From contig CAYOWP010000010.1 in the NCBI GenBank assembly GCA_964407715.1, forward strand, positions 1-43,896: a stretch of 43,896 bases of DNA, written 5' to 3'. Under the pieces are notes generated by a model, which was not told where the DNA came from, made no database searches, and saw only the letters and a list, made by a program, of their open reading frames with translations. The position numbers were made by a program, and so were the translations under genes. Source of the stretch: an uncultured archaeon (GTDB lineage: Archaea; EX4484-52; JAADEF01). Below, in pieces: positions 8,923 to 29,573 of this stretch (its first letter is position 1; every line of letters begins with the position of its first letter).

Positions 8923-8956
8923 AGACTCACCAAAATAATTAAGATGTTAATTATGA

Positions 8957-9080
8957 TCCCGCCGCCCGGATTCGAACCGGGGACAATGCGGTATCTGTTG
9001 ATATATGGTAGAGCACCACCAATCCTCTCCATTGGAGAGGATCTACAGCCGCACGCTCTACCAGGCTGAGCTACGGCGGG
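8957..9080 (-). tRNA. tRNA-Tyr(GTA) with 50-nt intron at canonical 37/38 (intron 8993-9042)
   Basis: Reverse complement CCCGCCGTAGCTCAGCCTGGTAGAGCGTGCGG-CT-GTA-G|intron|A-CCGCA...GGTTCGAATCCGGGCGGCGGG-A; BHB central helix CTGT/ACAG; CCA not encoded. Confidence 0.95.
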
Positions 9081-9250
9081 ATAATCATGAATAAATAAAA
9101 ATTATTTTAAAATTCTGAAAGACACAACATATTAAAATAATTAAGTGCCGAGTTAAATTTAAAAAATTATCTCTGGAGTTATATTTAAATATTTTCAGGA
9201 GTATATTGATTTTATGATATGATAATTTAAGCAATGAAGAGGTAGAGGAG

Positions 9251-29438: not shown

Positions 29439-29573
29439 TGCAGGGGGTGGGATTTGAACCCACGAACCCACTAAGGGAGTGGATTTCTCAGAAGATATCA
29501 AATCATCGCATCGCTCATTACTCAAGATTCCCTCTTGAGTCCACCGCCGTTGGCCAGGCTTGGCGACCCCTGC
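29439..29573 (-). tRNA. tRNA-Leu(CAA) with 49-nt intron at 37/38 (intron 29485-29533)
   Basis: Reverse complement GCAGGGGTCGCCAAGCCTGGCCAACGGCG-GTGGA-CT-CAA-G|intron|A-TCCAC, long variable arm, GTGGGTTCAAATCCCAC-CCCCTGC-A; BHB helix CTCA/TGAG. Confidence 0.95.

Follow-up and report, generated by a model that had tools for sequence, protein, structure and literature searches.

In euryarchaeal tRNA-Trp, C/D as well as C'/D' motifs are present in the intron, together with an additional guide directed at nucleotide 39, whereas the tRNA-Leu(CAA) intron described here has one kink, one guide and a length of 49 nt, and resides in a different host. In the euryarchaeal pre-tRNA-Trp intron guide, C34 is selected by an antisense element upstream of an internal D' box, a box order reportedly described by Clouet d'Orval in 2001. 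In Haloferax volcanii pre-tRNA-Trp and Pyrococcus sR50, that guide is housed in the intron at 37/38 of the very tRNA that it targets, and the guide and splice folds are alternatives to one another (PMC7994747, PMC11408192); as read here, the present intron is alike in all these respects. Four C/D sRNAs of Pyrococcus are described as acting on the first anticodon position of tRNA-Leu(CAA), of tRNA-Leu(UAA) and of the tRNAs for Met and Trp, only the Trp guide being intronic (PMC7994747), and C34 of Pyrococcus furiosus tRNA-Leu(CAA) is quoted as a predicted target in PMC7668247.

Another DPANN tRNA intron, the 66-nt intron within elongator tRNA-Met from Nanoarchaeum equitans, has likewise been proposed as a methylation guide (Randau 2012, PMC3491384). 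A stable C/D-like RNA, for which a GC hairpin is mentioned along with a box D and a degenerate version of box C, was reported in this intron, at a time when only tRNA-Trp introns had been known to hold such RNAs. The likeness is drawn from the description in that text, where the host is Met and not Leu, no target is named and no single-kink logic is set out. Guides of reduced architecture have also been studied in vitro. Half-mer guides with one K-turn or K-loop and L7Ae are described as giving specific and efficient methylation, 8-bp substrates being modified more weakly (PMC9670817); an older study reports a single-site complex that was active yet non-specific (PMC1635284). The half-mers MMG4 and MMG5 (Wang, Yang and Ye 2022, PMC9670817) share the topology of the present intron, in which the guide stands at the 5' side of a single K-turn or K-loop, and support N+5 methylation with L7Ae. 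However, as presented there, they are synthetic, act in trans and were assembled with Sulfolobus proteins. Within the search terms used, the literature searched contained no description of a guide in a tRNA-Leu intron or of a natural one-kink guide.

The window, that is, the whole 43,896-nt stretch of DNA that was analysed, is contig 10 of a 0.9-Mb archaeal assembly with 32% G+C and a completeness of 92%. Its tRNA-Leu(CAA) gene runs from 29573 to 29439 (Table 1) and matches the Rfam tRNA model at 35.6 bits (gathering score 29, E value 5.7e-06), the alignment showing a large insertion within the anticodon loop. Direct reading of the gene gives the anticodon CAA and the long variable arm typical of tRNA-Leu. 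No box C/D family of Rfam matched the region at E values of up to 10, the four matches obtained being the tRNA itself and three chance ones. Without its intron option, ARAGORN reported no tRNAs across the window; with the option (-i), the gene was miscalled as tRNA-Ile(GAU), and its orthologues were called tRNA-Leu(CAA). The coordinates given for the intron in the original prediction, which had described it as a compact box C/D guide positioned to methylate its own wobble C34, were matched exactly by sequence reading and by the Rfam alignment, and the observation underlying that prediction is confirmed.

Table 1. Features of the tRNA-Leu(CAA) gene and of its intron, in window coordinates
Feature	Position	Strand	Remarks
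tRNA-Leu(CAA) gene with intron	29439..29573	-	135 nt; Rfam tRNA 35.6 bits; direct reading
5' exon	29534-29573	-	40 nt
3' exon	29439-29484	-	
Intron at the canonical 37/38 position	29485..29533	-	49 nt; foldable as bulge-helix-bulge conformer
Target, anticodon-loop A31-G37 (ACUCAAG)	29534..29540	-	direct reading; paired with the guide in the minimum-energy fold
Antisense element (putative guide) AUCUUGAGU, intron nt 6-14	29520..29528	-	fully complementary to spliced nt 31-39
D'-like box AUGA (intron nt 16-19), the predicted non-bulged K-turn strand	29515..29518	-	1 nt 3' of the guide
C-stem mini-hairpin GC-GAU-GC, intron nt 20-26	29508..29514	-	stem abuts the GA of D'; found in 24/28 Leu-CAA introns
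3-nt bulge GAU and C'-like GAUU, intron nt 27-33; bulged strand of the predicted K-turn	29501..29507	-	register from AAUGAU orthologues
Linker UGAUAUCUUC, intron nt 34-43	29491..29500	-	pairs with intron nt 2-8 in the splice motif's outer helix (constrained fold)
UGAG (partner of C32-A35 in the bulge-helix-bulge's central helix) and 3'-bulge AA	29485..29490	-	constrained bulge-helix-bulge fold

In the sense direction, the intron reads AGGGA-AUCUUGAGU-A-AUGA-GCGAUGC-GAU-GAUU-UGAUAUCUUC-UGAG-AA. Direct comparison bore out the statement that AUCUUGAGU is the exact reverse complement of spliced nucleotides 31-39, ACUCAAGAU; the pairing spans 8 bp in the precursor, one fewer than the 9 bp in the spliced tRNA. 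The placement of C34 (base 29537) also held: it lies opposite the fifth guide nucleotide upstream of AUGA, taken as D', with a 1-nt spacer. The reading that we consider likely is that the intron is a one-kink guide inside its own target, directing a putative Cm34 methylation of tRNA-Leu(CAA). The putative guide would probably act in cis, and sugar methylation at the wobble position would most likely take place before the intron is removed.

It could be objected that this is an ordinary intron in which short motifs meet by chance in AT-rich sequence. Indeed, the loose pattern ATGA-SS...S-R-ATGAT has 24 matches across the genome, most of which fall in coding sequence, and a loose genome-wide scan for a K-turn hairpin next to at least 8 nt of tRNA antisense was very noisy. 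However, the module pattern TTGAGT-N-ATGA-N{4,30}-ATGAT matches once in the window, against 0.01 matches expected from 100 dinucleotide shuffles, and a chance origin is also opposed by the conservation, the covarying stems, the fixed 3-nt bulge and the paralogues described below. When the intron was shuffled 20000 times, 31 of the shuffles produced a complement of at least 9 nt to nucleotides 27-43. An origin of the motifs by chance is extremely improbable and is already contradicted by the geometry test and by the comparison across the phylum.

In a K-turn, one strand has a GA that is followed directly by a canonical stem, and the other strand leads from the stem through three unpaired bases to a GA. 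The arrangement AUGA|GC...GC|GAU|GAUU matches this layout. A scripted geometry test was applied to tRNA-Leu(CAA) introns collected from relatives by similarity and by a pattern fixing only the antisense element, ATGA and ATGAT, so that the K-turn geometry was left free by the search and the sequences were picked regardless of it. With a bulge of 3 nt, at least two stacked pairs abut the GA of D' in 24 of 28 distinct introns, while only 0-3 of the 28 reach this number of pairs when the bulge is set to 0, 1, 2, 4, 5 or 6 nt; shuffled hairpins averaged 5.0 and never exceeded 12 in 2000 trials with the same 28 sequences. The stems found in the Leu-CAA introns include GC/GC, GCA/UGC, GCC/GGC, GGUC/GACC, GCCG/CGGC, GCAUGCG/CGUAUGU and GUUUCCU/AGGAAGC. 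When 70 distinct modules of the four tRNA types are taken together, the stem is closed by G-C (37), C-G (26), G-U (4) or U-A (1), or its closing position is unpaired (2); the first box is AUGA (53), CUGA (16) or UUGA (1), and the bulge is GAU (52), AAU (17) or UAU (1), its last two letters being set by the search pattern.

Within the phylum, the 3-nt-bulge geometry is present in 14/15 Leu-CAA, 2/2 Leu-UAA, 13/16 Trp and 19/24 Met modules; the remaining modules have C-GNRA-G loops, that is, K-loops. In the Met introns, the second guide position covaries with nucleotide 31 of the tRNA (C with G31 in the own family of the source genome, U with A31 elsewhere), the two being complementary in 24/24 cases at a position left unconstrained by the pattern. 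In the sequences compared, the predicted stems of the module covary, and the geometry indicates that AUGA, the short hairpin, the 3-nt bulge and GAUU form one K-turn or K-loop, whose sheared pairs we infer. The C-stem of the window copy, with only 2 bp and a 3-nt loop, counts against the guide reading. Covariation at the fourth position of the NC-stem (A of AUGA with U of GAUU) was also considered and was dropped, the combinations in the 70 modules being A/U in 35, A/A in 15, C/U in 10, C/C in 6 and others in 4.

The comparison bears differently on the individual boxes. In the original prediction, the intron had been given a D' box AUGA, a C' box GCGAUGA, a second guide UUUGAUAUCUU and a perfect terminal D box CUGA, and all four strings are present in the window copy; taken together, they would make it a complete compact C/D RNA. 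The string CUGA (29488-29491) is also found at the intron 3' end in 7 of 15 distinct Leu-CAA modules of the phylum. However, it overlaps the splice-motif strand and is not conserved, so that its role as a D box did not stand. The sequence UGAG is required at the 3' end because nucleotides 32-35, with which it forms the central helix of the bulge-helix-bulge (BHB), read CUCA; the CUGA of the window copy is this splice strand plus one C. At the same site, seven of the 15 modules have UAAG and one has AUGA, so that xUGA occurs in 8/15, and in 15/31 of a wider set. The Leu-UAA and Trp paralogues lack UGA at this site, their introns ending in UAAGAA and GGGGAA, respectively, and there is no C box that could serve as partner of a D box.

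The string proposed as C' is likewise present but was read in the wrong register. Orthologues and paralogues with AAUGAU leave only the second GA of GAUGAU available, which places C' at AUGAUUU, three bases further 3' and behind the 3-nt bulge. The missing 5' C box, noted earlier as a weakness of this copy, is a real absence that characterises the whole family: only 5 nt precede the guide in the window copy, and in the orthologues, where the stretch 5' of the antisense element is 3 to 27 nt long and variable in sequence, no GA-containing box was found. The second guide is not upheld. The segment between C' and the splice strand measures 11 nt in the window copy as against 1-6 nt in relatives from the phylum, too short for a guide, and UUUGAUAUCUU has no complement of at least 8 nt in the 40 tRNA genes of the genome, the assembly being without rRNA genes. 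Across the AT-rich genome, a match to the whole complement of UUUGAUAUCUU turns up 14 times, which is unspecific. The reading as a complete C/D RNA is very improbable and is already contradicted by the comparison of sequences.

Of the features that define canonical C/D RNAs, the intron has an internal D'/C' K-loop or K-turn motif and an antisense element ending 1 nt upstream of D' with its target at N+5. It has neither a box C (RUGAUGA) near the 5' end nor a box D pairing with it, nor the two box pairs and two guides (nucleotides 34 and 39) of the euryarchaeal Trp type. Since there is no C box and no conserved D box, the RNA falls outside the canonical two-motif definition; with no second guide, and with the supposed D box explained as splice strand, a one-kink design is what results. 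The core of the earlier inference, namely an intron-borne guide with AUGA as D' and C34 at N+5, is supported by the comparison, and its D box, C' register and second guide are not. A regular expression for full C/D sRNAs had no match in the whole genome, and the 33 C...D pairs spaced 28-50 nt apart look like coding sequence, so that no free-standing guide set could be defined for comparison.

The distribution of the module was surveyed in 42 genomes of the phylum, including the source genome, with a strict pattern for each tRNA type and a reversed pattern as control. The strict module was found in 15 genomes for Leu-CAA, 16 for Trp, 24 for Met and 2 for Leu-UAA, the last in the own genus only, and the reversed pattern had no match for any of the four tRNA types. 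By family, the Leu-CAA module is present in 4/4 genomes of the own family plus the source genome itself, in 3/3 of family f2, 1/1 of f4 and 6/16 of f6; the strict pattern found none in f3, f5, f7 and f8. Altogether, the strict Leu-CAA module is missing from 27/42 genomes. Among 14 intron-bearing Leu-CAA genes found in the phylum by similarity, 11 have the module at the same 1-nt spacing, two (L009, L010) have an unrelated intron and one (L011) has a decayed copy. The module is thus dispensable or replaceable, some genomes having plainly lost it. Outside the phylum, at least 120 loci in species genomes matched the pattern. Among the 120 matches listed, 23 are tRNA-Leu(CAA) genes with the module, all in records labelled as DPANN (Woesearchaeota, Aenigmatarchaeota, Nanoarchaeota and others), and the rest are chance matches, mostly bacterial.

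UUGAGU is found in every orthologue that has the module, and a comparison of the Leu-CAA introns of relatives, for which an alignment had been suggested as a check, shows that the antisense element, the 1-nt spacer and the succession AUGA, hairpin, 3-nt bulge and GAU are kept. Eight other DPANN tRNA-Leu(CAA) introns (L054, L063, L069, L088, L089, L102, L105 and L155) have a second antisense element of 6-9 nt (CCCACU, UCCACU and similar) immediately 5' of the splice strand. This element is complementary to the variable arm (AGUGGG, AGUGGA) and varies along with it; the bases that follow (AUGAGG, AUGUGA, AGGUGA) include no conserved D box. Shuffling gave fractions of 0.02-0.33 per sequence for the seven that were scored, L102 having been judged by eye only, and the window intron has no such element directed at the variable arm. 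A separate observation concerns tRNA-Leu(UAA) of families f3 and f7 (L015, L019-L022, L024, L026, L030), in which there is no intron in the anticodon loop and an insertion of about 40 to 140 nt, a non-canonical intron, lies inside the T-loop after GGUUCGAA or GGUUCAAA.

The source genome has 40 tRNA genes (ARAGORN -i), nine of which are interrupted by introns 45-82 nt long, namely Phe-GAA, Thr-UGU, Met-CAU, Ile-UAU, Leu-UAA, Tyr-GUA, Leu-CAA, Lys-CUU and Trp-CCA. These nine genes are spread over contigs C5, C6, C10, C11 and C14. Side-by-side reading identified the module in four of the nine introns, those of Leu-CAA, Leu-UAA, Trp-CCA and the elongator Met-CAU. All four share one layout, in which a complement of the own anticodon loop starting from nucleotide 31 is followed by 1 nt, AUGA, a hairpin or loop closed by G+C, RAU and GAUU, and nucleotide 34 lies in each case opposite the fifth base upstream of AUGA. 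The Trp intron is of the same reduced design, unlike its euryarchaeal counterparts. The position addressed and the tRNAs concerned, Trp included, are the same as for the wobble guides described in Pyrococcus; however, the Pyrococcus guides for both tRNA-Leu species and tRNA-Met are described as free-standing, two-motif and acting in trans (PMC7994747), whereas the modules of the source genome lie inside the intron of their own target. The other five long introns (Phe, Thr, Ile-UAU, Tyr and Lys) have neither the motif nor a complement of at least 6 nt starting at nucleotide 31, and their length is left unexplained by any recognisable guide module.

One of these five lies in the window itself. 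The gene for tRNA-Tyr(GUA) (8955-9081, minus strand) has a 50-nt intron without a K-turn; it contains a 9-bp hairpin, AUCCUCUCC/GGAGAGGAU, and the 9-nt GCUCUACCA, the exact complement of the D-arm UGGUAGAGC of the same tRNA, with no box after it. Runs of N occur in the assembly at C6:12569-12729, inside the tRNA-Met intron, and at C2:53789-53875, inside another tRNA gene; the 3' half of the Met intron is therefore unreadable. Several motif matches on contigs C8 and C9 have identical flanks in opposite orientation (for example, C8:28001-28021 and C9:23097-23117), and these contigs thus have a duplicated or doubly assembled segment in common.

The genome encodes the core C/D proteins, whose presence had been proposed as a check, as intact open reading frames: L7Ae (121 aa, 93 bits), Nop5 (327 aa, 141 bits) and fibrillarin (225 aa, 221 bits). 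Genes for EndA (89 bits) and RtcB (551 bits) were also found and are likewise intact. In the phylum, fibrillarin was identified in 37/42 and Nop5 in 36/42 genomes, each being present in 10/10 high-quality genomes; because the two are near-universal with or without the module, their presence does not discriminate. The fibrillarin gene (C4:61842-62474) starts about 30 nt past a tRNA-Met gene (C4:61697-61773) and lies 16 kb from the Nop5 gene (C4:78126-78572). In the own family, the Nop5 match (139-148 bits) is limited to Pfam Nop profile positions 75-228; in most of the phylum's other families, fibrillarin and Nop5 are adjacent and the Nop5 match covers positions 2-228 (160-209 bits).

The intron also has the features of an archaeal BHB intron at position 37/38, with a 4-bp central helix, two 3-nt bulges and the EndA and RtcB genes in the genome. 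A fold constrained to the BHB has a predicted energy of -10.9 kcal/mol and consists of the anticodon stem, CUCA paired with UGAG, the bulges AG|A and AA|A and the outer helix. The predicted ground state is the guide hairpin, at -16.8 kcal/mol, in which A31-G37 and the first intron base form 8 bp with UCUUGAGU. In the splice-competent fold, which is less stable by 5.9 kcal/mol, these loop bases are used as well; as the predicted ground state, the guide hairpin would compete with splicing. Among 31 sequences, the antisense pairing spans 6-10 nt in the precursor and 6-9 nt in the spliced tRNA, being longer in the precursor in 7, equal in 22 and shorter in 2, one of them the window copy (8 versus 9). 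Two features count against the guide reading, namely that guide and target are joined in cis by a loop of 5 nt and that the antisense element is short, with only 6 bp in 14/31 sequences. So short a pairing in many relatives favours action in cis.

The proposed sequence of events is as follows. After transcription, intron nucleotides 7-14 would pair with A31-G37 and the first intron base to form the predicted 8-bp hairpin, and the K-turn or K-loop, comprising AUGA, the 2-bp GC stem with its 3-nt loop, the GAU bulge and GAUU, would lie directly 3' of it. L7Ae would bind the kink, Nop5-fibrillarin would dock on the L7Ae-RNA complex and C34 would be methylated according to the N+5 rule. The precursor would then refold, C32-A35 switching to UGAG at the intron 3' end, and the resulting BHB would be cut by EndA and the exons ligated by RtcB, in an order that places methylation before splicing.

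L7Ae binds many K-turns outside C/D RNAs, and the module might be a structural or timing element that, when bound by L7Ae, chaperones folding, protects the anticodon loop or delays splicing, with no fibrillarin step. This wider use of K-turns by L7Ae, the guide hairpin as predicted ground state and the lack of a second K-turn for a canonical RNP would all suit such an element. However, it would leave unexplained why, in four different tRNAs, the spacing always brings nucleotide 34 to the fifth place upstream of the box and why the hosts are the same four tRNAs whose wobble positions are targeted by C/D guides in Pyrococcus, and the five other long introns of the genome splice without anything of the kind. 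A purely structural role is therefore unlikely.

The RNA might also guide another chemistry at position 34, for example base acetylation, by an enzyme recruited via L7Ae or Nop5; box C/D snoRNPs that guide acetylation exist in yeast, according to a reference in PMC7994747. However, the targets comprise C34 in Leu-CAA, Trp and Met and U34 in Leu-UAA, for which a ribose modification is a better fit than a base-specific one, and the N+5 register is the rule of fibrillarin. Guidance of a different chemistry thus seems highly unlikely, and the one-kink guide for Cm34 is the reading that we retain. It is possible, but on balance doubtful, that these introns are more generally natural monopartite guides, with one K-turn, 6-9 nt of antisense and no C/D terminal motif, that act in cis and that the four-tRNA set is the intronic counterpart, ancestral or reduced, of the Pyrococcus wobble guides. 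Since guide hairpin and splice motif draw on the same bases of the anticodon loop, such introns would impose a methylate-before-splice checkpoint.

Intron-borne guides have been known for tRNA-Trp in Euryarchaeota and suspected for tRNA-Met in Nanoarchaeum, and the candidate described here extends them to tRNA-Leu(CAA). With its paralogues, it forms a coherent set, in which the tRNAs of split codon boxes that separate purine-ending from pyrimidine-ending codons (UUR for Leu, UGG for Trp and AUG for Met) each carry their own candidate wobble guide. The module would explain why long tRNA introns persist in small archaeal genomes, and also why the genes concerned are missed or miscalled by tRNA finders. 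The function of half-mer C/D RNAs has been debated; the 2022 study describes them as working in vitro and asks whether reduced guides occur in nature (PMC9670817). A conserved natural one-kink family would be a direct test object for this question, and its design offers a simple model for the coupling of modification to splicing. If these introns are indeed monopartite cis guides and the intronic counterpart of the Pyrococcus set, the origin or the mobility of C/D sRNAs would be linked to tRNA introns.
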